From contig MTMD02000001.1 in NCBI GenBank assembly GCA_002010065.2, positions 77,692 to 141,691 of the forward strand: 64,000 nt of DNA, read 5' to 3'. A program made the translations under genes and the position numbers. The DNA comes from Candidatus Pyrohabitans jungbluthii (GTDB lineage Archaea; Hydrothermarchaeota; Hydrothermarchaeia; Hydrothermarchaeales; BMS3B). Below, one piece after another: positions 16,532 to 62,855 of the stretch (positions are counted from its first letter, which is position 1; every line of letters begins with the position of its first letter). Below the pieces are notes generated by a model. That model was not told the DNA's origin. It was given only the letters and a program-made list of their open reading frames with translations, and made no database searches.

Positions 16532-16786
16532 TCACGCCTTCTTTATCCTGTAGACAAATGTACCGCCGTCGGAGCGCTTCTCTATTATCTCATGCCCTTC
16601 CTTGTCGCAGAGCGCTGTAATACTCTCCTCTGAGGAGGGGTTGTCAAAGAGCACTTCAAGTACATCGCCGCTCTTCAGCTTCTGCAGCGTCTTCATTGTG
16701 TAGAGTTGGGGATGTGGACATACATAGCCCTTGACATCCAGCTGGTATACTCCATCTTCAAGCTTCTTAACTTTCACTTTCTGCAC
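16532..16786 (-). CDS. tusA: Sulfur carrier TusA/YeeD family
   Basis: LDVKGYVCPHPQLYTMKTL...GDVLEVLFDNPSS (CPxP). Confidence 0.93.
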   Translation of the reverse strand: MQKVKVKKLEDGVYQLDVKGYVCPHPQLYTMKTLQKLKSGDVLEVLFDNPSSEESITALCDKEGHEIIEKRSDGGTFVYRIKKA

Positions 16787-16790
16787 CTCC

Positions 16791-18182
16791 TTACTCTATC
16801 TCTATGTCAATATCAAAATCCTCTTCCTTAAGCTGGCGCTCAGTCCACCAGTTGAGGAACTTCACGCTTGCCAATGCGCCGCCGCCCATGCCCAAGAAGA
16901 ACAGCCAGCCACCGGGGTCACCGCCAGCAACACGGATGTAGAATGCACCGATGTTGCAGCCCAGTGCTATTCGCGCACCGAGACCCATGAGCGTGCCTCC
17001 GAGGATGCCCCAGACTGCCAGCTCCTTGGTTGGTGCCTTGAACTTGAACTCCTTGTTGAGCAGAGCTATGGCTGCCGCACCAAGGATTATACCTATGGAC
17101 ATGAGCAACGCAGGGTTGTGCCACGGCTCGGGTATGCCGTTCATTACGCCAAAGTATATATTGTCCTTCATGTTCCATCCGAACTTCTCCAGCACCCAGG
17201 CACCCACCTGCGCTTCCTGTGTGGTTATATACCAGTAACCGGGGTCAAACACTGTACCTCTCCTAGAAACTTCTTCCACAAAACCAAGCTTCACCAGAGC
17301 CTGGCCGAAGTTTTCTATACCGAACTTGTCCCTGAGGCTCTGCATCGCCATTACGTGGATGCCTGCTATTATGCCAATTAGAATCCCCGCAAGGGTTGTT
17401 CTTTTCGAAGCAGTTATCATCTGCCAGAAGCCGTAAAGCTCGTCTTTGAGACCCAGCTTAACATCCCCGCCGTCCGCAGGCAGTGTTGCTGCTTTCTTCT
17501 CTATAATGCGCCTGACAATGCCCTTCCTAGCAACAAACCAATACGCGAGGCTGAGGAATATCAGCGTGGGTATTATGGTGTTGATGATCGAATTCGCTAT
17601 AAAGTATTCGCCAAGGCTAAGGCCCTTACCAAAGAATTTCTCTGCCAAGGTGAACTTAGGCTGCGGGAATATGTAGCCCCTCAGAAGCTTGTCGAACCAT
17701 CCCTGCGCATCTACGAATATCGCTTGAGAGAAGGATATCGCGAGCAGAGCAAGCATAGAGGTGCCATTACCCTCGCCGGTTTTGTACAACGTACCAGAAG
17801 CACAGCCACCAGCGAGCACCATACCCAGACCAAATATAAGCCCGCCAACAAGTTCATGTATACCCAGTGGGCCAGGATGGAAGGTGCTCAGCTGGTTTGC
17901 CGCCAGCACTGCCATGATAACGCTGAACACACCCATGGCGACCATTATGCCCACGAACATCCTAGTTACGCCGATGGCGAAGAGGTCGCGCCACGCTGAA
18001 GCGAAACAGAATCTGCCCCACTGCAGAAGTATGCCGTAGGCAAAGCCGAACCATGCGTAGGCAATGATGTACATGTAGATCGGGTTGACTCTATAGTACC
18101 ACAGGCTTATTATCAACATTATGCCAACTACAGAAAAAGCCCAGAATTTCCTCCTTCTATCGGCATCGTCTGCCATATTCAT
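16791..18182 (-). CDS. YeeE/YedE thiosulfate/sulfur-compound transporter
   Basis: GRFCFASAWRD, GMVLAGGCASGTLYK, GARIALGCNIGA (three conserved Cys). AGGAGG ribosome site before 18182. Confidence 0.93.
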   Translation of the reverse strand: MNMADDADRRRKFWAFSVVGIMLIISLWYYRVNPIYMYIIAYAWFGFAYGILLQWGRFCFASAWRDLFAIGVTRMFVGIMVAMGVFSVIMAVLAANQLSTFHPGPLGIHELVGGLIFGLGMVLAGGCASGTLYKTGEGNGTSMLALLAISFSQAIFVDAQGWFDKLLRGYIFPQPKFTLAEKFFGKGLSLGEYFIANSIINTIIPTLIFLSLAYWFVARKGIVRRIIEKKAATLPADGGDVKLGLKDELYGFWQMITASKRTTLAGILIGIIAGIHVMAMQSLRDKFGIENFGQALVKLGFVEEVSRRGTVFDPGYWYITTQEAQVGAWVLEKFGWNMKDNIYFGVMNGIPEPWHNPALLMSIGIILGAAAIALLNKEFKFKAPTKELAVWGILGGTLMGLGARIALGCNIGAFYIRVAGGDPGGWLFFLGMGGGALASVKFLNWWTERQLKEEDFDIDIEIE

Positions 18183-18394
18183 CCTTTCCTCCTTAAGCTT
18201 GTACTGAGCATTCTGGAGTATCTTGTTCCCCATACCTATATTTATATTTTTCGAAAGTGGTTTCAAGATAACCGAAATTTAATTCCTCACACTTTCATAA
18301 AAATCAAAAGTTATAATGTTGGATTAATAAATAATAGAAAAATATTTAAACATCTAGATAAAATAGAAAATTTAGCTTATTGGGTGATTTTATT

Positions 18395-18625
18395 ATGGAG
18401 CATTTGTGCGCAGGCAAGAGCATAAATCTGGATTTAACCTTCTGTCCACCAGCGGCAGTGGTTACGTCCAGCTTGAAAAAGGCTGAAAGTGGAGAAGTTT
18501 TGCTTGTAAAGGCATCAAGGTGTCAGGTTGAAATGGTGGAAGCGATTGCAGAGCGGCTTGGTGCAGAGATAATCCAGAAGGAAAAGAAGGGCTCTGCCAC
18601 AGAACTATGGATAATTAAGAAGTAG
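18395..18625 (+). CDS. TusA-like protein (FCPP variant), copy 1
   Basis: DLTFCPPAAVVTSSLKKAESGEVLLV...ELWIIKK. GGTGA upstream. Confidence 0.7.
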   Translation: MEHLCAGKSINLDLTFCPPAAVVTSSLKKAESGEVLLVKASRCQVEMVEAIAERLGAEIIQKEKKGSATELWIIKK

Positions 18626-47695: not shown

Positions 47696-47744
47696 GTTTT
47701 AGTGCTGCGTCTTGGCACACCTGAGCAAAACTGGAGGTATAGCC

Positions 47745-48560
47745 ATGGTTGAGAGTAAGACACTCAAGGTTGAGGAGTACATAATAACAGAAGAGCCCTA
47801 CTACGAGCCCGTGGGCAATGAGATTGAGATTTTTGAAGCCGCTTACAAGAACAAGCTCCCTGTTATGCTTAAAGGTCCCACCGGCTGCGGTAAGACCCGC
47901 TTCATGCAGTACATGGCATGGAAGCTTAAGCGCCCCCTAATTACCGTATCCTGTCACGACGACCTGACCTCGAGCGACCTGGTGGGACGCTACCTTGTTA
48001 AAGGCGGAGAGACCGAGTGGGTGGACGGCCCGCTTACCCGTGCGGTTAAGGTTGGTGCTATCTGCTACCTCGACGAGATTGTAGAGGCAAGAAAGGACAC
48101 CACCGTTGTGATTCACCCGCTCACCGACGACAGGCGAATTTTACCAATAGAGAAGAGGGGCGAGATAATTAAGGCGCCGGATGAGTTCCTTCTCGCTATC
48201 TCCTACAACCCGGGTTACCAGAGCGTGCTTAAAGATCTGAAGCACTCCACCAGGCAGCGCTTCGTAAGCATAAACTTCGACTACCCGCCCAAGGAGCTGG
48301 AGAAGAAGATAGTCATGAAGGAGAGCGGAGTAGATGAAGAAACTGCTGAGGCGCTGGTAACGCTTGGCGAGAAGATACGCAACCTCAAGGACAAAGGCTT
48401 AGAAGAAGGCGCAGGTACCAGACTGCTCATCTACGCGGGTCAGCTAATAAAGGAAGGCATCGAGCCAGCACAAGCGGCGGAAATAGCGATGGCAAACCCG
48501 ATTACAGACGACGCCGACATGCTCCGCGCTATTAGAGAGCTCATAACCACTGTATTCTAG
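47745..48560 (+). CDS. CbbQ/NirQ/NorQ (MoxR-type) AAA+ ATPase
   Basis: [42 protein letters not shown]. Confidence 0.95.
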
Positions 48561-48570
48561 GGTAGCGAAT

Positions 48571-50934
48571 ATGGCGAGCTTTGAAGACGTACGGAGCAAT
48601 CTGTTCAAGATTCTGGGGCAGACATCCTTTGGCGAGGACGTAATGGATGTGCGCTTCACGGGCTTTCACTATGCCCGTGGGCTGCGCAGCATAGACGAGG
48701 CAGTGCCAGCGCTGATGGAGCTGCCCAACGACGTGCTGAGGGAGATCTACAGGCAAGGGGAGAAGCTGGCGAAGCGCGACAAGGAGATGGCATTCAACTT
48801 CTTCATGACCGCCCCGGACGCGGTGACCCACTTTAGCCTCGAGGACCTCAAAAAGTGGGTGGAGATGGGCTTAGAGCTGGCGGACGCGTACGGCGTCGTA
48901 CCAGCGCGCAACTTCTTCAAGGGTATTACCAGGGAGACCATTGAGAAGATCCACTCCCATGGACTTGAGTTTAAAGATGTGGCAAGGATAATGGAGATAT
49001 ACATCAACGCGCTGAGCGGTGACCAGCTGGCGGTGCAGGAGGACGTCACAAGCTACACAGATACGCGCGTAGTTTACCTGCCCCAGAAGGTGGAAGAATT
49101 TGAGAACAATGAGCTCAACTTTAAGGTTTACAAGGTGATAGCGGCGCATCGCTACGCTCAGAAGCGCTACCGCAGCCTTGAGCCAAATCTGAAGCGCATT
49201 GAGGATGTTGTAAACGAAATTCAGCAGAAGTACGGGCGCAGCATCTCCGACACCCGCGAGGGGCTGGAGAACTTTATATACCTCTTCCCGGAGGAGCAGC
49301 TTGCTTTAGATATTTTCAGCATAGTGGAGAATGCACGGGTGGAGAGAAATCTGCGCAAGGAGTTTAAAGGCATAGCCCGAGACATGGACATGCTTTTAGA
49401 GCGGGAGTGGGAGCGCCGTCCCAGCTTTTCAAAGCTGAGCGATAAGGAGGCGGTGCTGGAAGCGCTGATGCAGCTCCTGACCTACGGGAAGCTTAAAGAG
49501 GGTCTAAACCCCAGCTTAGAGGAGATAGCGCGTAAAGCCTACGAGATAGTAAAGGAGATGCTGGAAAAGGAGCGCCCGACCGTTGAGGACAGCTGCATCG
49601 CCACCTATAAGATTTACGAGCTTATTGAGGAAAAGCTCTTCGGCACACCATACAACCGCTTCAACGACATAGCATTTAGAGGCGTTATTAAGCCAGAGCA
49701 GGTAACCGCAGGCTTGAGAAAGACCAAGAAGGAGATGGCAGAGAAGCTGGAGTCGCTGCTGGAGGATCTGAATATAGAGAAGCCTCCAGATATAGACAGC
49801 ATGATTCAGCATGCAATGAATGAGGTGCCCGATCCCCTCGCCTATGGCGCGCCTCTCGATTTTCTCTTCCGCCTTGGCTTGGAGATCCCCGAGGAGATAC
49901 AGGAGGAGATCCTGCGCGAGATAGAGAAGATACTCGGCGAGCTGGGTGAGATCGACGCCAGCATGCTGATGAAGGTTCTGGACAGCGCTGGCAGGAAGAT
50001 AAGGGCAAACATCCAGGCTAAGGTTACCGAGTTCCAGGTGGAGCTTACTGAGGAGGACAAGCAGGGGGCCTTCCTCTACGACGAGTGGGATTACAAGGTG
50101 GGGAACTACCGCGCTGCGTGGTGTGCCCTGAAGGAGAAAATGATGCACAAGGGCAGCGATAAGTTCGTGGAGAAGACGCTGCAGAAGCACGCAGGCTTGG
50201 TGTCGCTTATAAAGCGTCAGTTTGAGATGATGCGCCCCGACTACAAACGGCTCTTCAAGCAGATGTACGGCGAGGAGATAGACCTGGACGCCTTCGTCGA
50301 AGCTTTTGCTGACATTAAGGCAGGCGTAACACCCAGCGACAAGCTGTACATAAAGATCGACAAGAAGGAGCGCGATATCGCTGTTGCCTTCCTCGTGGAC
50401 TTGAGTGGCTCAACCACCGGCTGGGTTATTGAGACTGAGAAGGAAGCTCTCGTGTTGATGTGCGAGGCGCTTGAAATTCTCGATGACAAGTATGCGATCT
50501 TCGGCTTCTCAGGTAAAACGCGCAAGCAGTGCGACTTTTACATAATAAAGCGCTTCGATGAGCCATACGACGAAGAAGTTAAGCAACGTATCGCCGGCAT
50601 GGATGCCTTTGACTACACGCGAATGGGGCCGCCGATACGCCACGTTACCAAAATACTCGAGGAGACGCCGGCTAAGATCAAGCTGCTTATAGTGCTCAGC
50701 GACGGCAAACCCGAGGACTTCGATGAATACAAGGGGGACCACGGCATAGAGGATACAAAGAAGGCGCTCATCGAAGCAAAGAGGAAGCACATCCGCCCCT
50801 TCTGCATCACCATAGACACCGAGGCGAGGGACTATATACAGCGCATGTTTGGTGAGATTGGCTACATTATTCTCGACGACGTTGCAAAGCTGCCCAGAAA
50901 GCTTCCGGAGATATACAGGAGGCTCACCACCTGA
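48571..50934 (+). CDS. NorD/CbbO-like VWA protein
   Basis: ENARVE, YDEWDY, GEEIDLDA, MIDAS DLSGST, YTRMG, LSDGKP. Confidence 0.93.
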   Translation: MASFEDVRSNLFKILGQTSFGEDVMDVRFTGFHYARGLRSIDEAVPALMELPNDVLREIYRQGEKLAKRDKEMAFNFFMTAPDAVTHFSLEDLKKWVEMGLELADAYGVVPARNFFKGITRETIEKIHSHGLEFKDVARIMEIYINALSGDQLAVQEDVTSYTDTRVVYLPQKVEEFENNELNFKVYKVIAAHRYAQKRYRSLEPNLKRIEDVVNEIQQKYGRSISDTREGLENFIYLFPEEQLALDIFSIVENARVERNLRKEFKGIARDMDMLLEREWERRPSFSKLSDKEAVLEALMQLLTYGKLKEGLNPSLEEIARKAYEIVKEMLEKERPTVEDSCIATYKIYELIEEKLFGTPYNRFNDIAFRGVIKPEQVTAGLRKTKKEMAEKLESLLEDLNIEKPPDIDSMIQHAMNEVPDPLAYGAPLDFLFRLGLEIPEEIQEEILREIEKILGELGEIDASMLMKVLDSAGRKIRANIQAKVTEFQVELTEEDKQGAFLYDEWDYKVGNYRAAWCALKEKMMHKGSDKFVEKTLQKHAGLVSLIKRQFEMMRPDYKRLFKQMYGEEIDLDAFVEAFADIKAGVTPSDKLYIKIDKKERDIAVAFLVDLSGSTTGWVIETEKEALVLMCEALEILDDKYAIFGFSGKTRKQCDFYIIKRFDEPYDEEVKQRIAGMDAFDYTRMGPPIRHVTKILEETPAKIKLLIVLSDGKPEDFDEYKGDHGIEDTKKALIEAKRKHIRPFCITIDTEARDYIQRMFGEIGYIILDDVAKLPRKLPEIYRRLTT

Positions 50935-52651: not shown

Positions 52652-53338
52652 ATGAATGTCCATATTGCTCCAATCGGGACTCAAAGTGACGAGCATATCC
52701 GGAGGGCTGTTCATGGAAAAACGCCAGTGGATAAACTCTACCTAATACCAACGAAAGAGTCTTATGAAAAAGCAATTAAGTTGAAAGAAGACCTTGAAAA
52801 CACGCTTTCTTCTTTGAAAATAGAGATAAAGATGCTTGAAGAACAAGGTAGAAAACGTTTTATCGATCCATTTAATCTCAACGACATCGTTGCAGCAATA
52901 TTACAAATTGCAAACGCGGAGAAAGGAAATAAACTATTTGTAAACATAACTGGCGGAACAAACCTAATGGCAGGAGGTGCAACAACTGCAGCATATCTCA
53001 CGGGTGCAACCATATACTATATTAAGAAACAACAGGAGAATGAAAGACTTGAAGACATTATAATAAAAATCCCCGTTCCAAAAATACCGCTTTACAAATA
53101 CGGAGAAATTAGAGTAAAGATTTTAAAGATTATTGCAGAAAAAGGAGGAAGAATTAACAAAGCAAAAGAACTTGCAAGAGAATTGGACATAGCTCCGCAA
53201 ACGGTAAGCTACCATCTCAAAGAGTTAGAAAAGTCAGGACTCGTAAAAGTGATCATGGATGAAAACAACAGGCGACAGAAGCAATATGAGATAACAGAGA
53301 ACGGCAAATTAATAGCTACATTATTTGAGGTTGATTAG
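52652..53338 (+). CDS. CARF (DUF6293/Csa3-like) + winged-HTH regulator
   Basis: VHIAPIG, VDKLYLI, FVNITGGTNLM, ELARELDIAPQTVSYHLKELEKSGLV...ITENGK. AT-rich. Confidence 0.82.
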   Translation: MNVHIAPIGTQSDEHIRRAVHGKTPVDKLYLIPTKESYEKAIKLKEDLENTLSSLKIEIKMLEEQGRKRFIDPFNLNDIVAAILQIANAEKGNKLFVNITGGTNLMAGGATTAAYLTGATIYYIKKQQENERLEDIIIKIPVPKIPLYKYGEIRVKILKIIAEKGGRINKAKELARELDIAPQTVSYHLKELEKSGLVKVIMDENNRRQKQYEITENGKLIATLFEVD

Positions 53339-54293
53339 TCTGTTCTAACGGGAACTTTGCAAAAATGTTAAGGATACCGAAGGTTAGATCTCGTGCTTTT
53401 TCTACATTTTCCTTGTGCATTGAGTCAGAGATATTCGCACATGTCCTATGTTCATATTTATTTCGTAAAGCTTGTATAACAATTAATTTTTCTGTAAGAC
53501 ATTTTAATTCATCATATGATAATGAATGGCCGATGTAATTCAAAAATTCTTCCATTATATCATTGTATATAATAATCATACAAAAAATTGGTATTAAATT
53601 TTTTATTTCACATGTTCCTTTATAGCAAACATCAAATTCTTTAATTTCTGGATCGGTGATTACATCCATTTTTTGTCTACTGCTTTTGAGATAATCTATA
53701 ATTTTATTTTCAATCTTATTTCGTTCTAGCTCTTTACAAATTTTATCTAATTTTTGTAAATATTTCATATTGTTATCTGATATAATTTTTTGAATTATAG
53801 TTTTGTCTTTAACTAAATAATTTGGATATTTATTTTTAGTATTATAATCAAAATCTTTTTCTTTTTCAAAAATTTTGTCTTCATATTTACAATCGAATAT
53901 TATGTTTTTAATTTCACTATTATTTAAAAATGAATTGAGTATAATTCTTAAATTATTTATTAATGAATCAGAATCTCCTAACACCTGATCATAATATCCA
54001 TATTTTATGATATCTCTGGCTTTGATAAAGTCGATATCAGATTCTTTGACTTTAATTTCTAAATCTTTAAGTTTTGATTTTATATACTGATATTCCGGAA
54101 TAATTTTCAAATTTTTAGATAATTTATTTTCTATTTCCCTTTCATAGGTTTTATCAGACGCTTGATTTAGTATTTTTCTAATTTGCCGCCGAATTTCGAC
54201 CATAGATACCCCAGATAAAAATGCAACTAAAATTCTCCAATTTTGTTTTAGAATTTTTTGAATATCTTCTATATCTACTTTTTTTAATTCCAT
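53316..54293 (-). CDS. AT-rich hypothetical protein with C-terminal HEPN-like RxxxxH motif
   Basis: LRNKYEH followed by an amphipathic helix. Extremely AT-rich codons. Confidence 0.65.
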   Translation of the reverse strand: MELKKVDIEDIQKILKQNWRILVAFLSGVSMVEIRRQIRKILNQASDKTYEREIENKLSKNLKIIPEYQYIKSKLKDLEIKVKESDIDFIKARDIIKYGYYDQVLGDSDSLINNLRIILNSFLNNSEIKNIIFDCKYEDKIFEKEKDFDYNTKNKYPNYLVKDKTIIQKIISDNNMKYLQKLDKICKELERNKIENKIIDYLKSSRQKMDVITDPEIKEFDVCYKGTCEIKNLIPIFCMIIIYNDIMEEFLNYIGHSLSYDELKCLTEKLIVIQALRNKYEHRTCANISDSMHKENVEKARDLTFGILNIFAKFPLEQTNQPQIM

Positions 54294-54901: not shown

Positions 54902-55252
54902 TTAAAACAACGGCGGCGAATGCGTCGCGAGGAGAATTAATTCCTCGCTACCAGTGTTTTCAATCCCATGCTCCTCCCCCGGCGGAACAAAGATATAGTC
55001 ACCTTCCCTTATGCCAACCCACTCCCCATTCACATAAGCTTTTCCCATACCCTTTAAAATGTAGATGGAGTCCACCTCCTTTTCATGGAGGTGCACGCTG
55101 GCGGAGCTTCCAGGGGATATTTTCAGTACAGAAACGCTCACCTCAGAGTTTTTCTCGCTCGTTATGAGCTTCGCAATCTCTACTCCAGCGAACTTGGGGT
55201 GAGGCTCAAACCTAATATCAGCGCTTTTTATTAAAATGCTGCCCATGCTCAC
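54902..55252 (-). CDS. Cupin domain protein
   Basis: HLHEKEVDSIYILKGMG and GDYIFVPPGEEHGIEN. Confidence 0.92.
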   Translation of the reverse strand: MSMGSILIKSADIRFEPHPKFAGVEIAKLITSEKNSEVSVSVLKISPGSSASVHLHEKEVDSIYILKGMGKAYVNGEWVGIREGDYIFVPPGEEHGIENTGSEELILLATHSPPLF

Positions 55253-56322
55253 TCCGCCCTGAGGAAGTAGGTGCTCTCCCCGGAGGTGTCTATTTTATTC
55301 ACAGAGGCAAACTCGGCACCAAGCTCCTCTCCGCTCAGATTGCTCGCCGCGTTCAGCATCTCCTCCACTTGCTTATACTCGTGCTCAAGGAAAAGCTTGG
55401 CTATCTTCGCCATAGCTCTGTAAAAGTCCATCTCCACTATCTCTTCGCTCTTGTATTTCTCAACGTCGCGCACGTCGCCATGATACTTGAGCGCTATGCC
55501 CACCTTGAACTCGTCGGTGGCTACATCGTCGAAGAGGTAGGGCAGCCAGAGAATCATATGCTCATGGATGAACTTCTTCTGGCGCTCCAAAGCGAGGAGT
55601 GCCTTTTCCCTGTCGCCAGCTTTCCACGCTTCTATCTCATCCTCCAGCAGGCGGAAGGCAAACTCAAGCTCAAGTTTGGCTTCGTCCGGCGGGAGGTTTC
55701 CGCGTGATTTATCAAGAATATAACCTGCCTCACGGTACAGGTTCTTAACCTCAGCCGTCAAATCGCCCATTATCTGCTTCTCGCTTCTATACACAGACTC
55801 GTGCCCCGAGATGTATGGCATGAGGTCGTCGTCGAAAATTGTAAACCGCTCCGCCTCAAGCTCACGCCGGAACTTCTTTGGCTTCATGTCAGCGAAGGCG
55901 TTACGGAATCGCTCAAGCGCCTGGAAGTGCTCCTCAAGCAGGTTCTCAGGGATAATCTTACCTAGAGCGGAGCGGAGCTTTTCCATGTACTCCCCGCTCA
56001 GAATCTCCTCTGCCAGAGCAGGAGAAATCTCTGTAAAAGCGCGGAAAATCTGGAAGTATGCGTCTCGCCTGGCAACGGCGAGCTCAACATAACTCTTCGC
56101 ATCGTGAGGCGTCGCAGGAGTGCGCTGAATGTTGGGCTTCCTATTCTCTACTAAAGCGATCCAGTGGTCTTTATCTTTAATATTCATGGAGTGAATCCAG
56201 AACAGATAGTTATACTTCTTGAGCAGATTCTTCCAGTCCTTTGCCAATTCGGGATCAAAGTACCACTTTACGTAATCGTTCCTCTCAAATATATCCTTGG
56301 GCTCTCTCGGCAAGGTTAACAC
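55249..56322 (-). CDS. TorD/DmsD-family molybdoenzyme maturation chaperone with N-terminal extension
   Basis: HESVYR, LYREAG, LPPDEAKLELEF, QKKFIHEHMILWLP, FYRAMA. Confidence 0.8.
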   Translation of the reverse strand: MLTLPREPKDIFERNDYVKWYFDPELAKDWKNLLKKYNYLFWIHSMNIKDKDHWIALVENRKPNIQRTPATPHDAKSYVELAVARRDAYFQIFRAFTEISPALAEEILSGEYMEKLRSALGKIIPENLLEEHFQALERFRNAFADMKPKKFRRELEAERFTIFDDDLMPYISGHESVYRSEKQIMGDLTAEVKNLYREAGYILDKSRGNLPPDEAKLELEFAFRLLEDEIEAWKAGDREKALLALERQKKFIHEHMILWLPYLFDDVATDEFKVGIALKYHGDVRDVEKYKSEEIVEMDFYRAMAKIAKLFLEHEYKQVEEMLNAASNLSGEELGAEFASVNKIDTSGESTYFLRAE

Positions 56323-56367
56323 CTCTTCTCAAATTATAAACTAAAAACGAGGGAAAGGAAAACTGAA

Positions 56368-57204
56368 TCAGTGCCTCTCCTCTGGCGCAGGGAATGGGAA
56401 GTCATCTCCGGGTAAAGCATAGTATACAGAGCCCACACGTATAATACGCCTGTTCTCTGCCTTCTTTTCAATGACCTTCTTCACATCCTTGTAGTACCCG
56501 AAGGTCATGGCTTCGGTGGAGCACTTGGTTGCACAGGCACTCCACAAACCCTCGTAGGTAATGCTCTCAACCCCACGACCAACCTCTGCAAGCTTCTTCC
56601 CAGATAGGGGTTCGCCCTTCTCATCGACGAGCCTGCCCTTGTTGTCCCGCTTTATGTTGCCAACCTCATCCGCCACTGGCAGGCGTACCTCTCCGCCATG
56701 CTTGTATGTATAGCGGTAGATCTTCTGAAGCTCTTCTTTAGTGTAAGTCCTGCGATAGTCCACACGCTGCATGCAGAAGTTGCACTTTACCACTCTGCCA
56801 GTGCGGGAATCGTACTGGGGGGCGCCATAGGGGCAGGCTTGCATGCAGCGCTTGCAGCCTATGCAAGCCTCGCTGTCCACAAAGACAATGCCATCCTTGG
56901 CGCGCTTCTGCATTGCTCCGGTCGGGCATGCCTCGACACAGGGCGCGGGGTTGCAGTGGTAGCACAGCATGGGGATATAGAGGGTCTTAACCCTGCCGAG
57001 TACCTTCCTTGGTCCAACCTGGATAACGCGTATAAGACGGGGACCCATGCTCAGGTCATGTTCAAGTTTGCATGAAGTTTCACAGGAAAAGCAGCCTATA
57101 CAGCGCTTTAAATCGATAAGCATAACAACAGTATTATCACTCGGCTCACGCTGGTCAACCTCGTACATGCTAAAAGCTTCGTCAAAAACCTCTACGCTGA
57201 CCAT
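56368..57204 (-). CDS. 4x[4Fe-4S] electron-transfer subunit (DmsB/PsrB-like), copy 2, with internal insertion
   Basis: CIGCFSCETSC, CYHCNPAPCVEACP, CIGCKRCMQACP, KCNFC...(long insert)...ACATKC. Confidence 0.93.
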   Translation of the reverse strand: MVSVEVFDEAFSMYEVDQREPSDNTVVMLIDLKRCIGCFSCETSCKLEHDLSMGPRLIRVIQVGPRKVLGRVKTLYIPMLCYHCNPAPCVEACPTGAMQKRAKDGIVFVDSEACIGCKRCMQACPYGAPQYDSRTGRVVKCNFCMQRVDYRRTYTKEELQKIYRYTYKHGGEVRLPVADEVGNIKRDNKGRLVDEKGEPLSGKKLAEVGRGVESITYEGLWSACATKCSTEAMTFGYYKDVKKVIEKKAENRRIIRVGSVYYALPGDDFPFPAPEERH

Positions 57205-57476
57205 TACTCCTTCCTCCTGGGTTTAAGCATATCCTCCGGCAGAACATTGTGACGTTCGGGATAAGCTGAAGCCGGGGAGACCATTATCTCATCCTTATCT
57301 CCCCAGAAATAAGCATACACAGTCTCAAGGGCACGAATCTCTCTCACAGCGGTAAGACCATACTTCCAGTTGGGATTCTTGATAAAACTCTTCTTAATTT
57401 CGGGAGGAACAACACCTTCAAGAGCCTTCTTCTGAGCCTCGTCAAGCTCTCCACGATAACCCTTCGTTTTTGCCAA
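57204..57476 (-). CDS. Small protein homologous to the C-terminal tail of Fe-S subunit copy 1
   Basis: GGAGG ribosome site then TTG. VREIRA...FWGDK...SPASAYPER...P...LKP aligns with FREKDA...FNDK...SPAYSFPER...P...LKP. Confidence 0.72.
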   Translation of the reverse strand: MAKTKGYRGELDEAQKKALEGVVPPEIKKSFIKNPNWKYGLTAVREIRALETVYAYFWGDKDEIMVSPASAYPERHNVLPEDMLKPRRKE

Positions 57477-57505
57477 TTTAGTATCCTCCTGTTGTGAAAA
57501 GTAAA

Positions 57506-57543
57506 CAAAAATCAAAAACAAAAGGGTAGGGGAAAGCCCCTAC
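57506..57543 (-). terminator. Intra-operon hairpin plus U-rich terminator/attenuator
   Basis: Minus strand GTAGGGG-CTTT-CCCCTAC-CCTTTTGTTTTTGATTTTT. Confidence 0.65.
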
Positions 57544-58325
57544 TTCTGCTGCTTCAGGAACACCGGCTTTGTCACTTCGGTTACGCGCTCAGGCAGCTTG
57601 CCCGGCTTGAGGCGTATCCTGGGTATGAAAAGCGCGCGCTCCGGGAAGGAGTACGCCGGCGAGGTGAGCAGATCGGTGTCTGCCTTGTCGTTGAAGAACA
57701 CTCTCGCGAGGCGGATCGCGTCCTTCTCGCGGAAGTAGGTCATTATGTCGGCGGGGTTGCCGATGTACAGGCAGTGAGTGGAGCACTTGGTCACACAGGC
57801 TGGCTGCAGACCCTTGTCGATGCGGTGCATGCAGTAGTCGCACTTTATTACCTTGCCGGTGCGGGAATCCCACTGGGGCGCACCGAATGGGCAAGCCTGC
57901 ATGCAGCGCTTGCAACCTATGCACTTCTCGCTGTCTACGAAGACAATACCGTCCTTGGCGCGCTTTGTCATTGCTCCAGTCGGGCACGCCTCAACGCACG
58001 CTGCGTGGCCGCACATGAAGCAGTTCATGGGTATGTACATTGCCTTGGTGTGGCGACCCACCTTCTTGGGCCCCACCTGGATGACGCGCATCCTGCGCGG
58101 ACCCATGGGGTCGTCATGCTCCAGCTTGCACGCGGTCTCGCAGGCGAAGCAGCCTATGCAGCGCTTGAGGTCAACAAACATGGTAATGTGGTCTGGGGGG
58201 ATACCCCAGACGCGGGCAGCCTGAACCTCGTAGAGACCAATCTTCTCGTTCCTCTGCAGACCTTGTCGAGCGGTCTCCTGATCAAGGTTGAGAAGGGGAC
58301 CCTTGTCTGAGAATACCTCATCCAT
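57540..58325 (-). CDS. 4x[4Fe-4S] electron-transfer subunit (DmsB/PsrB-like), copy 1
   Basis: CIGCFACETAC, CFMCGHAACVEACP, CIGCKRCMQACP, KCDYC..PACVTKC. GAGGTGA ribosome site. Confidence 0.94.
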   Translation of the reverse strand: MDEVFSDKGPLLNLDQETARQGLQRNEKIGLYEVQAARVWGIPPDHITMFVDLKRCIGCFACETACKLEHDDPMGPRRMRVIQVGPKKVGRHTKAMYIPMNCFMCGHAACVEACPTGAMTKRAKDGIVFVDSEKCIGCKRCMQACPFGAPQWDSRTGKVIKCDYCMHRIDKGLQPACVTKCSTHCLYIGNPADIMTYFREKDAIRLARVFFNDKADTDLLTSPAYSFPERALFIPRIRLKPGKLPERVTEVTKPVFLKQQK

Positions 58326-58335
58326 CTTAATCACC

Positions 58336-60831
58336 TCACTTGGTCTCCCACTTCTCACGCGGCACGCCTACATAGTAAATGCCGCTGCCCTTCTGGATGA
58401 ACCTGGTGTAGGTACCCAGGTTGACAGTGGGCTCCTTCTCTGGGTCGAGGTAGTCCTTGGGTGTGCGCTTGACCTTGGCAAGGAACTCCTTGGTCTTCTC
58501 CACAGCCTTGTCAGGATCGTCGCCCAGGCGGTACACTCTGACGAGGTTGCACTTGTATTGAGCCTGGGTGTAGAATGGATCCTTCACAGTGTCGTCCACG
58601 AGTTCATTAATGTTGCTGTACGGATAGAAGGGCTGATACTTGTCGAAGCCTTCTGGACCCCAGACCTCGCCCTCGTCAACCATCTCGTTGACCCAGGCGG
58701 GGCCGATCACCTTGCCGTAGTCGTTCTCGCACACCACAGTGTCACCGTCGCGTATTCCGAGGGCCTTCGCAAGCTCGGTGTGGATGTTTATGAACCTGTG
58801 AGGCTCAAGCTCAACCATCCACGGCCACCAGTGACCCATCTCGTGGAAGTGCGCCACAAGGCGGCCGGTGCAGAGGATGAGCGGGTACTTTTCCCACAGG
58901 TCAGGCCTTGCAACTGGAGCATTGCTGGGCTCGATGTGTATGGGCAGTGGATACCAGCCGATCTGCTCCAGAGCCTGAGAGTATATCTCCACCTTGCCGC
59001 TCGGTGTTGGGAAGCGCTTGTCTGTGCCTGGGTAGTTCACACCCTCCTTGTACATTATCCACTGAGCACCGCGTATCGTCGCCTCGGGGTCGGAGTACAT
59101 CATGGCCTCGTCCTTGGTCTCGGCAGGCCACATCACACCGCCCTTCGGGGACATCTCGGGATCCATGAGCTCTACGGTTATACCGGCAACAAAGCTCTCC
59201 TGGGAGTGGAACCAGTTCTGGCACACGCGCTCGTCGATCTCGTGGGTGGTGCCCGGATACTTGGGATCCTCAGGCAAGGGGTTGCCGAACACGTCCTTCT
59301 TCGCCCACCAACTCTTGCCATCAGGAGCATAATACGCCTCGGCGAACTCGAAGCGCTTGGCTAAGCCCGCCCAGAAGTCTATATCGGCGCGGCACTCCCA
59401 CTGGCGCTCTATAATCTGGTTGTGCCACTGCACGTGGCGGTTGTTGCCGTGGTGGACAACGCCTTCATGCTCGAAGAAGCTGGTTATCGGGAACGCGGCG
59501 TGCATCCAGCTCATGGTCTCGTTGGGATGGAAGCTCAGGTGTACACCGCAGTACAGGTTCTTCATGTACTCGCGAACCTTGTTGTTGTTTGGCCACTGCA
59601 CTATGTGGTTTCCATTCCAGATGAGACCCTTAACAGGGTAGGGCTTGCCGGTGTAGCCGGGGTTAATTGTGCACGCGCTTGAGGTGTCGCCCCACGGGAT
59701 TATCTTGTCAGCAAGCTGGGGCTCCTTTATCTTCGCAACGTACTCCTTCAGGTCCTTACCAGCGCTGAGCACTGGGCGGCAGTTGTGGAGCCAGTTCCAG
59801 CCTCCTCCCTTAACGCCCACGTTACCGGTTATTGCGACGAGTATCTGGTAGGCGGCATTGCCATTACCAGCGTTGTACTGCTGCGCAGTACCTAAGCAAC
59901 CAGTGAAGTGGGTCCTCCTCGGGTAGGCGATCCACTCAGCGGCTTTGCGTATGTCCTCAGCCGGCACCCAGGTGATGTTCTCAGCCTTCTCAGGTGTATA
60001 GTCCTTCACGAGCTCGGCGTACTTCTCAAATCCCACGGTCCAGCGCTCAATGAAGTCCTTGTCAATTCCATCAATCTCGTATATGAGCACGTGGGCGAGC
60101 GCATTCGCCAGGTAAGCATCAGTGGTCGGGCGCAGGCGTAGCGCCAGGTCAGCCTTAGCCATGGTGGCGTTAAAGCGCGGGTCTATGACTATCATCTTGG
60201 CGCCGTTGCGATCCTGGGCCTCGATGAACCACTTCATGGTTATTACTTCCAGCGCCGCAGCGTTGGCACCGGAGATGAATATGGTGTCGCTGTTCATGGC
60301 ATCCTGACAGGGGTTCATCAGGCGCAGGAACTCCTTGGCGCCGAATACATACTGACCCCTCGCCCCAGGTGACTCACAGCAAAGTGGACCCTGACCGTAG
60401 ATGTTCGGGGTACCGTACATGGCAAGGAATCTTGAGCCACCAAGCTTGTTACCGTAGCTGCTCCTTCCTGTGCGGTGGCACGCTACGGTGTGGGCACCCC
60501 ACTTCTCACGGATGTACTTCAGGCGGTCTGCGACGAAGTCGAGAGCTTCGTCCCAGGTGACGCGCCTGAACTTGCCGTTTACGTTGTCCTCTCTAATAAC
60601 AGGATACTTGGCGCGCAGGGGGTTATATGCATGCTGGTAGTTAGCCGTTCCCTTCGGGCAAAGAGAGCCGTAGTTCTGTGGATGCTCGTCGTCACCCCAG
60701 ATGTCGACTATTCTGCCATCCTTGAGGTACACCTTCATCCCGCAACCGCTTTCGCACATGTTGTCGCAGGTGGTGTACCTGATGGTATCGTAGTCCTTTA
60801 CGGACTCCGACACTCTCCTCAATACTACCAC
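58336..60831 (-). CDS. Mo/W-bisPGD (DMSO-reductase family) oxidoreductase catalytic subunit, no Tat signal
   Basis: CDNMCESGC...LCPKG, TWDEALD, GPLCCESP, VIDPR, RPTTD, FPTPSGKVEI, YPLILCTGR..HFH. Confidence 0.94.
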   Translation of the reverse strand: MVVLRRVSESVKDYDTIRYTTCDNMCESGCGMKVYLKDGRIVDIWGDDEHPQNYGSLCPKGTANYQHAYNPLRAKYPVIREDNVNGKFRRVTWDEALDFVADRLKYIREKWGAHTVACHRTGRSSYGNKLGGSRFLAMYGTPNIYGQGPLCCESPGARGQYVFGAKEFLRLMNPCQDAMNSDTIFISGANAAALEVITMKWFIEAQDRNGAKMIVIDPRFNATMAKADLALRLRPTTDAYLANALAHVLIYEIDGIDKDFIERWTVGFEKYAELVKDYTPEKAENITWVPAEDIRKAAEWIAYPRRTHFTGCLGTAQQYNAGNGNAAYQILVAITGNVGVKGGGWNWLHNCRPVLSAGKDLKEYVAKIKEPQLADKIIPWGDTSSACTINPGYTGKPYPVKGLIWNGNHIVQWPNNNKVREYMKNLYCGVHLSFHPNETMSWMHAAFPITSFFEHEGVVHHGNNRHVQWHNQIIERQWECRADIDFWAGLAKRFEFAEAYYAPDGKSWWAKKDVFGNPLPEDPKYPGTTHEIDERVCQNWFHSQESFVAGITVELMDPEMSPKGGVMWPAETKDEAMMYSDPEATIRGAQWIMYKEGVNYPGTDKRFPTPSGKVEIYSQALEQIGWYPLPIHIEPSNAPVARPDLWEKYPLILCTGRLVAHFHEMGHWWPWMVELEPHRFINIHTELAKALGIRDGDTVVCENDYGKVIGPAWVNEMVDEGEVWGPEGFDKYQPFYPYSNINELVDDTVKDPFYTQAQYKCNLVRVYRLGDDPDKAVEKTKEFLAKVKRTPKDYLDPEKEPTVNLGTYTRFIQKGSGIYYVGVPREKWETK

Positions 60832-60929
60832 TTTTTCACCTCCAACCTTTCCGTTGTTACCTTACTGCGTGGGCTTGTAAAAACTACCCCACGCGACTTC
60901 GCTGTAACCTCTTATTGATTAATACTTCA

Positions 60930-60948
60930 CCCTATATATACTTTTTTA
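60930..60948. promoter_or_regulatory. Divergent promoter between the oxidoreductase operon and mobA-moeA
   Basis: Minus strand AAAAAAG-TATATATA (BRE+TATA). The TATA core is palindromic. Confidence 0.55.
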
Positions 60949-60960
60949 TCCGGGGCGAAA

Positions 60961-61593
60961 TTGAGCATGAAAATGCACAACCGTAATGAAAAAATGCGAT
61001 GCACCGCGGTTATACTCGCCGGCGGGCAAAGCAGGAGGATGGGAAGAGACAAGAGGTTTTTAACACTTGAGGGGGAAAGCTTTATTGAACGCATGCTCAG
61101 GCTCGCATCAGGCTTTGCCCGGGAGGTTATCATATCCCTTGCCACTGAGGAGCAGACATCGCAGATAAGCGCTGTGGGTAATTTCAAGGTGGTGCTGGAC
61201 GAAAACCCTGGAGAAGGCCCTGCTTATGCGCTAATTTCAGCCGCCAGGCATGCGAGTTATGAGTACCTTGCTGTCATGCCAGTAGATTCCCCTCTGCTTG
61301 AACCCGAGGTATACCGCCTCCTTATGCGAGAGGTTAAAGGTTACGATGCTGCTGTGCCCGTGGTGAATCGCATGCCCGAGCCTCTGCATGCCGTCTACTC
61401 GAGGCAAGGCCTCCTCGCACGCGCCTCAGAGGCAGAGCCTGGAAGTATGCATGCACTTCTAAGCCTGCTCAATGTTAACTTTGTGGAGGAAGAGAAGCTC
61501 CGCATCGCTGACCCTGAGATGCTGAGCTTTCTTAACATAAATACGCCTGAGGACTACAAAAAGCTCAGAGAAAGGGTGGAAACATGCAAGTGA
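60961..61593 (+). CDS. mobA: Molybdenum cofactor guanylyltransferase (start uncertain, 60967 or 60994)
   Basis: VILAGGQSRRMGRDK, GP, VDSP, PEPLHAVY, NINTPED. Confidence 0.94.
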   Translation: MSMKMHNRNEKMRCTAVILAGGQSRRMGRDKRFLTLEGESFIERMLRLASGFAREVIISLATEEQTSQISAVGNFKVVLDENPGEGPAYALISAARHASYEYLAVMPVDSPLLEPEVYRLLMREVKGYDAAVPVVNRMPEPLHAVYSRQGLLARASEAEPGSMHALLSLLNVNFVEEEKLRIADPEMLSFLNINTPEDYKKLRERVETCK

Positions 61594-62855
61594 GAGGTAA
61601 GGGTTTTTACCGCCTTACCCCCGTAGGTGAGGCGCTGGAGAAGCTGCTTTCAGGGATTCGCGTAATGGGAGAGGAGGAGGTTCTTCTCGAGGAAGCGCTT
61701 GGTAGAGTGCTCGCTCGTGATGTTGTAGCGGAGAGGGACAATCCACCCTTCGACCGCGCTGCAATGGATGGCTTTGCGGTGCGGGGGGAGAACACCTTCG
61801 GCGCAGGTCAGGCAAACCCTATATATTTTAGAATTATAGGAGAGGTACTCACAGGGCAGAGCTTTAACGGCGAGGTAAGTGACTTCGAGGCGGTGCGGAT
61901 AACCACCGGCGCACCTTTACCCCGAGGTGCAGACGCTGTAGTGATGCTGGAGCATGTGAATGAACTTGGCGGCGAGATTGAAGTAATTAAAGCGGTACCC
62001 CCTGGCAAAAACGTCTCACTGCGTGGAGAAGATTATAAAAAGGGTGAGGTACTCTTGAAGCGCGGGCGAGTGCTAAACCCTCAGGAAATCGCGATTCTCG
62101 CCTCGCTGGGAATGCGCAGGGTTAAGGTTTTTCGCAAGCCGAGGGTGGGGATAATCTCAACTGGCGACGAAATTAAAGAGCCTGGTGAAGAGTTGAAAGA
62201 AGGGCAGGTTTATGATACCAACAGCTTTGCTCTGGCTGCGCTTTGCAGGGCAACTGGCGCAGAGGCAAGCCGCCTGGGAGTTGTGAAGGATGAGTATGAG
62301 GCAATGAAGCATGCGGTAGAAGCCGGGTTAGGCTACGACGTCCTGCTGATAAGCGGCGCAACCTCCGTTGGTAAGCGTGACGTGGTGCCTGAGATAGTGC
62401 GCGAACTTGGTGAAGTTGTGGTGCACGGCGTGGCCATGCGCCCCGGCGAACCTACAGGCTTTGGTTACGTAGGCGATACCCTGGTATTCATGCTTCCCGG
62501 CTACCCGGTGGCTAGCATAGTTGCCTTTGAAACCTTTGTGCGCCCAGCGCTTCAGGTGATGCAGGGGCTTTCGCCTGCGATACCCTACCCCGCGATAAAA
62601 GCAAGGCTGCGCAGGAAGATACCCTCCGAGCTGGGCAGGCGGGATTTTGTTCGTGTTAAGGTGGAGCACACACCGCGAGGTTATGAGGCTGAGCCAGTGC
62701 GTACCTCGGGCTCTGGGATAGTCTCAAGCCTGGTGCGTGCAGATGGCTTTGTTATTGTGCCAGAAAACACCGAAGGTATAGAGAAGGGCGAGATCGTTGA
62801 AGTGAGGCTTTTCAGAGGCTTGAGTGAGCAGAAAAACAATCTTGCCGCAACCTGA
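61584..62855 (+). CDS. moeA: Molybdopterin molybdotransferase MoeA
   Basis: PPFDRAAMDGFAV, ITTGAPLP.GADAVVM.E, STGDE, PGEP, LPGYP. Confidence 0.96.
   Translation: MQVRGKGFYRLTPVGEALEKLLSGIRVMGEEEVLLEEALGRVLARDVVAERDNPPFDRAAMDGFAVRGENTFGAGQANPIYFRIIGEVLTGQSFNGEVSDFEAVRITTGAPLPRGADAVVMLEHVNELGGEIEVIKAVPPGKNVSLRGEDYKKGEVLLKRGRVLNPQEIAILASLGMRRVKVFRKPRVGIISTGDEIKEPGEELKEGQVYDTNSFALAALCRATGAEASRLGVVKDEYEAMKHAVEAGLGYDVLLISGATSVGKRDVVPEIVRELGEVVVHGVAMRPGEPTGFGYVGDTLVFMLPGYPVASIVAFETFVRPALQVMQGLSPAIPYPAIKARLRRKIPSELGRRDFVRVKVEHTPRGYEAEPVRTSGSGIVSSLVRADGFVIVPENTEGIEKGEIVEVRLFRGLSEQKNNLAAT

Follow-up and report, generated by a model that had tools for sequence, protein, structure and literature searches.

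What does a molybdenum- or tungsten-dependent oxidoreductase do in an archaeon when it stays in the cytoplasm, lacks a membrane anchor and is encoded beside its own maturation genes? The question is raised by a gene cluster of Candidatus Pyrohabitans jungbluthii (GCA_002010065.2) within a stretch of 64,000 nt (contig MTMD02000001.1, positions 77,692 to 141,691), hereafter the window, whose proteins, including exosome, proteasome and archaeal HMG-CoA synthase, form an archaeal set. A sequence-only reading of the window had described a catalytic subunit of the Mo/W-bis-pyranopterin guanine dinucleotide (bisPGD) type, two iron-sulfur (FeS) subunits, a small protein, a TorD-like chaperone, a cupin and divergent mobA-moeA genes, and had suggested cytoplasmic conversion of thiosulfate, sulfite or polysulfide. 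All of these genes are present, and the eight lie where that reading had placed them (Table 1). We find that the enzyme represents a molybdoenzyme subfamily that is conserved, unstudied so far and linked to dissimilatory sulfur metabolism. The sulfur role is well supported by context; as to substrate we tentatively favour sulfite, at a little under an even chance, which would make the protein a soluble cytoplasmic sulfite:acceptor oxidoreductase filling the slot of SoeABC or Apr-Sat.

A separate branch of the molybdoenzyme superfamily

Pfam models PF04879, PF00384 and PF01568 all score above cut-off and cover the full catalytic chain, which places it in the dimethyl sulfoxide (DMSO) reductase/MopB superfamily. 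No NCBIfam model comes near its cut-off, the best being Fdh-alpha (297 of 666 bits) and PhsA (202 of 694 bits). A word-indexed search returned 29 clusters at 46–100% identity with the next matches at 37% or less, and an exhaustive search of 50%-identity representatives gave the same gap; the members form a tight clade (at least 45% identity) on an uncharacterised DMSO reductase branch, the host protein being 76–99% identical to proteins of other Hydrothermarchaeota. In both a 170-row FastTree and a 34-row quick IQ-TREE (Shimodaira-Hasegawa-like approximate likelihood ratio test 100, no bootstrap) the clade is separate from PhsA, a SoeA-like protein, DmsA/YnfE, Fdh/Nap and the acetylene hydratase-like radiation, and among the references placed it is not nested in a characterised non-sulfur clade. 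These trees do without acetylene hydratase itself (its proxy P0048 scores 362.6 bits to it), Thermus thermophilus PsrA, TtrA, ArrA and MolyA; in the IQ-TREE, long branches lead to PhsA and to the SoeA-like reference, and the latter was labelled by motif and operon, its record reading 'molybdopterin oxidoreductase family protein'. Model scores, identity gap and tree position together bear out the earlier impression of an unrecognised subfamily.

No published description of the clade was found in the open literature, and subscription papers or supplements may hold one. Cys-ligated basal branches without names are reported in the excerpted text of PMC10100899, and the clade may be one of these. 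The accessible portions of two papers on Hydrothermarchaeota (PMC6775978, PMC6759336) and one on Acidulodesulfobacteriota (PMC12506266) contain no 'molybd' words.

Catalytic subunit and candidate active site

Both motifs singled out from the sequence, C-x3-C-E-x2-C of the FS0 cluster and GPLCCESP, are present in the catalytic subunit, with C22/C26/C30/C58 as the FS0 ligand set. Since FS0 begins at residue 22 and the S/T-R-R-x-F pattern of a twin-arginine translocation (Tat) peptide occurs in 0 of 96 clade rows, the subunit has no Tat peptide, as had been proposed, and a cytoplasmic location is supported. Motif counts refer to these 96 rows, which are redundant, and residue conservation to 68 rows, both being alignments only.

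C151 is a probable metal ligand because it is invariant in the clade and falls, in the alignments, on the Sec of FdhF and on a Cys in NapA, PhsA and the SoeA-like protein. Positions 151–152 read CC in 85 rows and CT in 9, with no match in 2; the vicinal Cys pair, from which, together with the Glu, atypical chemistry had been suggested, is thereby ruled out as an essential motif, its second member being Thr in 9/96 rows. E27 stands in 85/85 rows with a readable FS0 pattern (11 gave no match). The C-x3-C-x3-C spacing also occurs in E. coli DmsA and YnfE, and as judged from the alignments it is only the Glu after the second FS0 Cys that is special, not the spacing itself. R120, R123, E153, C351, R352, H460 and H461 are conserved at 97% or more, and the whole suggests a basic, anion-binding active site with two candidate acids, E27 and E153. 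A MOT1 transporter in 6 of the 72 loci over which all neighbourhood counts were made only hints that the metal could be Mo. A search for fused, longer forms gave no score, which is weak evidence.

These residues bear on whether the substrate contains sulfur at all. An NAD-linked formate/CO2 oxidoreductase, an acetylene hydratase-like hydratase or an arsenic or selenium oxyanion enzyme, with hosts that share a habitat, seems improbable to us. The top PDB and NCBIfam matches are FdhF-type, FdhD lies within one operon (L093), Glu27 occupies the position of the acetylene hydratase Asp, and a few carriers (G038, G039) lack a dissimilatory sulfur marker. Against this, C152 aligns to the FdhF His after Sec and H349, conserved in the clade, to an Arg of formate dehydrogenase; these are the His following the ligand and the active-site Arg of that enzyme, which here are replaced by Cys/Thr and His. 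The Fdh-alpha score falls far below cut-off, the clade stands apart from Fdh/Nap as from the acetylene hydratase-like proteins, and the host has its own Fdh. Acetylene hydratase (PDB 2e7z) is likewise cytoplasmic and Cys-ligated with an acid right after the second FS0 Cys (CQSCDINC), but its spacing is C-x2-C-D instead of C-x3-C-E, its proxy lies in a separate clade, and it scores 147.6 bits to the enzyme versus 362.6 to the acetylene hydratase-like protein outside the clade, so that the idea of acetylene hydratase-like working is not supported. The enzyme also has dedicated electron-transfer subunits, and a chain of up to nine redox clusters would be superfluous for a hydratase.

Several variants of the catalytic protein were noticed. 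Tandem paralogous genes, one CC-type and one CT-type as assigned via their nearest relatives (L024 and L018, respectively), lie on one metagenome contig (L091:8037-20286), where they share TorD, FeS and FAD genes and have MOT1, HdrA-like and HdrB-like genes divergent from them. In the IQ-TREE, P0121 is sister to the clade and four long-branch proteins without the Cys ligand nest inside it; in the long-branch relatives P0030, P0031, P0122–P0124, P0131 and P0143, FS0 is retained wherever the sequence includes the N-terminus, whereas Cys ligand and clade motifs are gone, and these proteins are possibly non-catalytic or differently ligated derivatives. A sister paralogue, 43% identical and with motifs C-S-N-Q-C-E and G-P-L-C-G-E-N (L080:7125-9554 in G006; L081:283-2748 in G005), sits in an operon with two moeA, moaA and fmdB/fwdD-like genes.

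Electron-transfer subunits and maturation genes

The absence of a membrane anchor is confirmed at two levels. In none of the operon proteins does the highest hydropathy over 19 residues exceed 1.53 (2.58 in a YeeE control), and no NrfD/PsrC-type anchor occurs within 3.5 kb downstream at the 72 loci, where TauE and MOT1 are the only proteins with multiple transmembrane segments. The first beta subunit has 17 Cys, 16 of which fit four [4Fe-4S] sites; the second has 16 Cys and an insert of ~70 aa and matches the first at 66% over 146 aa. The small protein (~90–105 aa; Hydrothermarchaeia only, 14/72 loci) is related to the tail of the window's beta subunit (hidden Markov model E 2e-8), and its 105-aa form in the window matched no Pfam or NCBIfam family and gave no usable ESM Atlas match. 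The archaeal form therefore appears to be built as alpha-beta-(tail + beta'), a predicted wire of up to nine clusters.

Bacterial relatives carry a two-protein FeS+FAD set of the PadIH type (NF045765/NF045766; 34/72 loci; best match PadH), which the window's archaeal cluster lacks and of which no close homologue was found in the host genome. AorAC is likewise an NAD-linking FeS+FAD module. Known users of such modules pass low-potential substrate electrons to NAD+, and the NAD module suits a low-potential donor. A CCG-domain protein occurs in 34/72 loci, directly upstream in acidophiles, and TauE or SulP-STAS-rhodanese transporters lie inside some operons. An 80-aa protein that most bacterial loci have (45/72 loci) is possibly ACT-like, as a lead only (ESM Atlas ACT-domain leads below 0.9); a homologue in the host lies on another contig (C2:105422-105787; L086 with 107993-110382), ~2 kb from a DsrK-like gene with a possible DsrM-like neighbour.

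The proposal that the enzyme has its own maturation genes is supported by the adjacent mobA and moeA (40/72 loci each) and the TorD/NarJ-family chaperone (20/72). The cupin is indeed at the locus but is no core subunit, being found in 5/72 loci, close relatives only. Acidophile operons (L044:14935-16291 and 27 further loci) have, among molybdenum-cofactor genes, a short MoaA (~281 aa) paired with a T-fold protein, PTPS/QueD-like, that could be a cofactor-modifying or MoaC-replacing enzyme.

Distribution and the link to sulfur metabolism

A scan of 185,579 species genomes gave 71 loci: 17 Hydrothermarchaeia-like, the rest from SZUA-79/Acidulodesulfobacterales, Nitrospiria, Anaerolineae, Sulfobacillus-type Bacillota, Thermoleophilia and Altiarchaeales, the single Altiarchaeales record carrying two copies. 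The gene is present in 32 of 38 genomes of the acidophile phylum SZUA-79.

A survey of 38 Hydrothermarchaeia genomes, 19 of them carriers (G005, which has only the 43% paralogue, counted as a non-carrier), revealed a near-exclusion with the genes of sulfate activation and adenylylsulfate reduction. Sat occurs in 1/19 carriers versus 12/19 non-carriers, AprA-like genes in 1/19 versus 8/19, and either in 1/19 versus 13/19 (Fisher p 1e-4); among the 21 genomes at least 90% complete, either is found in 1/14 versus 4/7 (p 0.025). Counted by family, the enzyme stands without Sat/Apr in six and Sat/Apr without the enzyme in five, while one family is mixed. A heme-copper family gene (E<=1e-30) was found in 7/10 carriers and 0/5 non-carriers tested. 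Among other carriers (50 of the 54 remaining loci, leaving out L024, L039, L052 and L054; 26/50 are SZUA-79), 36/50 have dsrA, 35/50 aprA and 40/50 either; of the ten with neither marker, LbpA/LipS genes adjoin the enzyme in G042 and G071, and an sHdrA-like match was obtained in G045. Across 17 Ardenticatenales genomes the enzyme occurs in 4/4 dsrA-positive ones (all without AprA, and perhaps close kin), in G042, where it adjoins LbpA/LipS1/LipS2/HdrA-like genes, and in 0/12 others. A SoeA-like gene was found in 2/61 carriers tested.

The neighbours point the same way as the distribution. The enzyme gene adjoins dsrAB-C-MK (L021, L030), apr/qmo (L027, L060–L062), sat-aprBA (L070) and LbpA/LipS (L022, L055), and adjacency to dsrAB, apr-qmo, sat-apr or sHdr-type genes is seen in at least three unrelated lineages; its recurrence across unrelated phyla argues against non-sulfur chemistry. 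Taken together, distribution and neighbours support the link to sulfur energy metabolism that had been proposed. The YeeE/TusA locus of the window, on which that proposal leaned, is not supported as a telling partner: it is 37–40 kb from the molybdoenzyme cluster, physical linkage was seen in 0/71 homologous loci, and YeeE occurs in 13/19 carriers versus 6/19 non-carriers (p=0.05). The locus itself (16532-18625) encodes a YeeE-family transporter with TusA/YedF-like neighbours and scores under the TsuA and YedE cut-offs.

The host genome (G000, 99.95% complete) encodes DsrA and DsrB above cut-off, DsrC, DsrP, five YeeE-type matches, LbpA/LipS-like genes, NapA, its own Fdh, a cNOR-like pair and prismane-family CO dehydrogenase-type genes; Sat, AprA and a SoeA-like gene were searched in it and not found. 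Its dsrH-E-F-like genes, to which no type was assigned, directly precede dsrMK; type II DsrEFH beside dsrMK in archaea has been proposed, in the excerpted text of PMC13293266, to mark sulfur oxidation that uses reductive-type DsrAB. A DsrE-like query, run without a positive control, gave no match in five relatives. The host also has a Tat-exported PhsA/Psr-like molybdoenzyme (C2:321105-325560; L087). Another residue takes the place of its first FS0 Cys (S-T-D-I-M-C-V-N-F-C); its neighbours are TorD, an FeS subunit and a probable lipoprotein, an NrfD anchor is absent, and the layout resembles the MOLY cluster.

Which sulfur compound?

Of the three substrates named beforehand, the sulfur link stands, but the signal favours a sulfite/sulfate step over thiosulfate or polysulfide, as follows from the near-exclusion with Sat/Apr together with the absence of SoeA. 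Oxidation of sulfite is favoured by carriers that are oxidisers with reverse-type Dsr and no SoeA, by the NAD module for low-potential donors, by high-potential electron sinks, by the many carriers without YeeE, and by the near-universality in an acidophile phylum. The gene set of the host, the Ardenticatenales distribution, the adjacency to dsr, apr and LbpA/LipS genes and the TauE or SulP-STAS-rhodanese transporters of some operons also count in its favour. Oxidative rDsrAB is reported for the carriers nzgw271, H51-bin250-1 and RBG-16-64-22, and Sox in addition for the 9FT-COMBO family, in the excerpts of PMC11033732; according to those of PMC6397845, soeABC is always present in proteobacterial dsr- or hdr-positive oxidisers.

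The reaction would be SO3(2-) + H2O -> SO4(2-) + 2e- + 2H+ in the cytoplasm, carried out by a functional analogue, not an orthologue, of SoeAB that would replace SoeABC and Sat/Apr. Cys151 would hold the metal and R120, R352 and H349 the oxyanion, while E27 or E153 would activate a metal-bound water whose oxygen would pass to sulfite. Electrons would exit through FS0 to the beta subunit and, in most bacteria, on to the 4x[4Fe-4S] + FAD module (PadIH/AorAC type) and NAD+, or to HdrB/HdrD-like proteins; in the host archaeon they would run along the duplicated beta-beta' wire to a carrier. The host might thereby complete sulfur oxidation to sulfate via reversed DsrAB/DsrEFH, with nitrate or nitric oxide (NO) as acceptor. 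Alternatively, the enzyme might provide the oxidative half of sulfite disproportionation, a possible role.

Several observations weigh against sulfite oxidation. The exclusion of Sat/Apr fits two readings, a sulfite/sulfate step or the making of sulfite from another compound, and a thiosulfate reductase, as another source of sulfite, would explain it equally well; its p-values are overstated, moreover, because the genomes are related and incomplete. One carrier (G013) combines the enzyme with Sat/AprA-like genes, one dsrA-positive genome (G012, 97% complete) has neither, AprA accompanies the enzyme in 35/50 other carriers (26/50 belonging to one phylum), and G038 and G039 have the enzyme without dsrA, aprA or sat. 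Simple co-occurrence with dsrA, part of the check on dsr, apr and sat that had been suggested, was rejected inside the class (14/19 carriers versus 10/19 non-carriers, p=0.31, no enrichment); the near-exclusion with Sat/Apr is the stronger signal. Two Sulfobacillus-type carriers keep SoeA as well, and family f5 (G019, G020) has the enzyme without DsrAB, with only an AsrC/Fsr-like pair in a seemingly assimilatory cluster, a gene set that suits a sulfite-making role. In the host, a sulfite-consuming cysteate synthase is present, and the excerpted text of PMC10591310 describes archaeal Dsr as solely reductive. Finally, NADH-driven thiosulfate reduction would be feasible at drawn-down sulfite (~-254 mV at 1 mM thiosulfate, calculated from standard potentials).

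The main alternative is a cytoplasmic thiosulfate (or trithionate/tetrathionate) reductase, which would draw electrons from NADH, ferredoxin or a thiol carrier to cleave the S-S bond and, where cells are unable to activate sulfate, would hand the sulfite on to DsrAB or to an Asr/Fsr-like reductase; we consider it somewhat unlikely. In the PDB search with the single sequence PsrA came second (202 bits), the CT variant matches the PsrA C-T-A-P, the host unites five YeeE-type matches with its cysteate synthase, and a Tat-less PhsAB-like complex of Dissulfuribacter is thiosulfate-induced, as stated in the excerpts of PMC13490349. PhsA nevertheless is separate in the tree and its model far from cut-off, YeeE/TusA is linked in 0/71 loci, and no YeeE match was found in five dsrA-positive Anaerolineae, f5, G045 and G080. 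The gene is near-universal (32/38) in an acidophile phylum; free thiosulfate is unstable in acid. The host already has the exported PhsA/Psr-like enzyme, and oxidiser carriers process thiosulfate via Sox (PMC11033732, as excerpted).

The CCG-domain protein, where it occurs, raises a further option: carrier-bound or polymeric sulfur (polysulfide, persulfide or S-sulfonate on DsrC/LbpA) converted with an HdrB/HdrD-like partner during S0 oxidation or disproportionation, to which we give a slender chance. Besides that protein's 34/72 loci and its place directly upstream in acidophiles, HdrD-like genes flank the enzyme in L021, L042 and L093, LbpA/LipS do so in L022 and L055, FdhD and a rhodanese-fused SulP occur in L093, and the extra conserved Cys (C351 and mostly C152) could hold sulfane sulfur. 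The window's cluster has no CCG partner, however, C152 is Thr in 9/96 rows, no known disproportionator appears among the titles of the 71 loci, and the enzyme is unlike the MOLY cluster, predicted to be exported in the excerpts of PMC12998232 and PMC9676032.

Lineages with DsrAB (or an Asr/Fsr-like reductase) and without Sat/Apr would also follow if a reversible sulfate/sulfite oxidoreductase ran reductively in CO dehydrogenase-bearing archaea, CO electrons reducing sulfate to sulfite without ATP activation. We hold this to be very improbable. The sulfate/sulfite couple lies at ~-389 mV at 20 mM sulfate and 1 uM sulfite (calculated from the standard potential), within reach of CO-reduced ferredoxin; we know of no enzyme for direct sulfate reduction without ATP activation, and a full-text literature search found none that converts sulfate to sulfite without it.

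In family f5, one cluster (L082:2431-8074 in G019; L083 in G020) holds the AsrC/Fsr-like pair with FrhB-like, DsrC-like, LarE, threonine-synthase-like and MoaD-like genes, and both genomes lack DsrAB, Sat and Apr.

Relation to known systems

By analogy, the enzyme most likely works like SoeAB without its anchor. SoeABC is the cytoplasm-facing sulfite:quinone dehydrogenase of Allochromatium vinosum (Dahl 2013, via the excerpted text of PMC6397845). The two share a Tat-less, Cys-ligated Mo-bisPGD subunit with a 4x[4Fe-4S] subunit, a Dsr or sHdr oxidation context, and, with the SoeA-like reference, the motifs T-G-R and G-T-P-N-x7-C. They differ in that the enzyme forms a separate clade (IQ-TREE) and is no SoeA orthologue, lacks a SoeC/NrfD anchor with output to NAD/FAD or duplicated FeS subunits instead, has C-x3-C-E for C-x2-C-A in FS0 and lacks the Arg of the SoeA-like 'MRG'. 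PsrABC/PhsABC (PDB 2vpw; PhsA NF012032) resemble it in the Cys ligand, the PsrB-type beta subunit, the TorD-type chaperone and the likeness of CT to C-T-A-P; the enzyme has no Tat peptide and no PsrC/PhsC, scores 202 bits versus 694 and sits on a separate branch.

The MOLY cluster, as far as the accessible portions of PMC9676032 and PMC12998232 describe it, likewise combines molybdopterin subunit A, FeS subunit B and a chaperone (TorD/DmsD) in a sulfur context without an anchor; MolyAB, however, are predicted to bear a signal peptide and to be extracellular, and complete clusters are given there for Desulfobacterota only. The enzyme is cytoplasmic, without a Tat peptide, and found in other phyla, and identity with MOLY was rejected; the two are set apart by location and description, not by sequence. 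The enzyme is thus a MopB superfamily member outside Soe, Psr/Phs, acetylene hydratase, Fdh and, by location, MOLY.

Implications

Many uncultured microbes have DsrAB without Sat/Apr and are hence read as plain sulfite reducers; it is this gap that the enzyme occupies. Should it oxidise sulfite, it would add a further cytoplasmic route besides Apr/Sat and SoeABC, to our knowledge the first that is soluble and NAD-linked, and would imply that archaea oxidise sulfur through Dsr or disproportionate sulfite without Apr. It would then also offer a candidate gene for the 'sulfite oxidoreductase' that has been postulated in disproportionation and was not found in the genome discussed in the excerpts of PMC9751629. 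If it reduces thiosulfate or polythionate, it would supply a missing entry step for a widespread class of vent archaea and be a core gene of the acid-mine-drainage phylum SZUA-79.

Gene layout and the NorQ/NorD-like pair

Table 1. Features of the molybdoenzyme cluster and of the NorQ/NorD-like pair (window positions).
Feature	Position	Strand	Remark
Catalytic Mo/W-bisPGD subunit, 831 aa	58336..60831	minus	PF04879+PF00384+PF01568
FS0 motif codons C22-D-N-M-C26-E27-S-G-C30	60742..60768	minus	
Codons for C151 + C152	60376..60381	minus	
FeS beta subunit, DmsB/PsrB type, C-terminal tail	57540..58358	minus	
Small protein, 105 aa, homologous to beta-subunit C-terminal tail	57204..57521	minus	
Second FeS beta subunit, duplicate of first, tail-less	56368..57204	minus	
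TorD/NarJ-family maturation chaperone (PF02613)	55249..56322	minus	
Cupin_2 protein	54902..55252	minus	peripheral
MobA-like guanylyltransferase	60961..61593	plus	divergent from catalytic gene
MoeA metal insertase	61584..62855	plus	divergent from catalytic gene
NorQ/CbbQ-type MoxR AAA+ ATPase	47712..48560	plus	outside the cluster first described
NorD/CbbO-like vWA protein, MIDAS DLSGS at 610	48571..50934	plus	outside the cluster first described

A promoter and terminator scan of the locus with a bacterial model, the host being archaeal, stayed at chance level, and no RNA holder turned up for the locus, which says nothing either way. The NorD-like vWA gene is present in 17/19 carriers versus 1/19 non-carriers of the class and lies inside the enzyme operon in four Nitrospiria loci, and the NorQ/NorD-like pair is a plausible maturation partner of the molybdoenzyme. 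According to the excerpts of PMC9976466 and PMC4240915, cNOR receives its iron through NorQ/NorD, and in CO dehydrogenase the Mo-Cu site is matured by CoxD/E. The host's own cNOR-like pair is an equally natural client, and we rejected the NorQ/NorD-like pair as a proven dedicated partner on that account; in G035 and G001 the vWA gene is present without a strong heme-copper match. Next to the cNOR-like NorB/NorC genes (G000:C2:518593-520910; L095) lies a heme O synthase-like gene.

The interval 52652-54293, which separates the cluster from the NorQ/NorD/thermosome genes, holds a 325-aa open reading frame without family match and a CARF-HTH regulator, Csa3-like and scoring above the TIGR01884 cut-off; neither was seen there in close relatives. 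At L070:3283-15240 the enzyme gene, frameshifted or split and lacking its beta subunit, lies upstream of sat-aprBA, with dsrO/dsrP-like genes on one side and gas-vesicle genes on the other.

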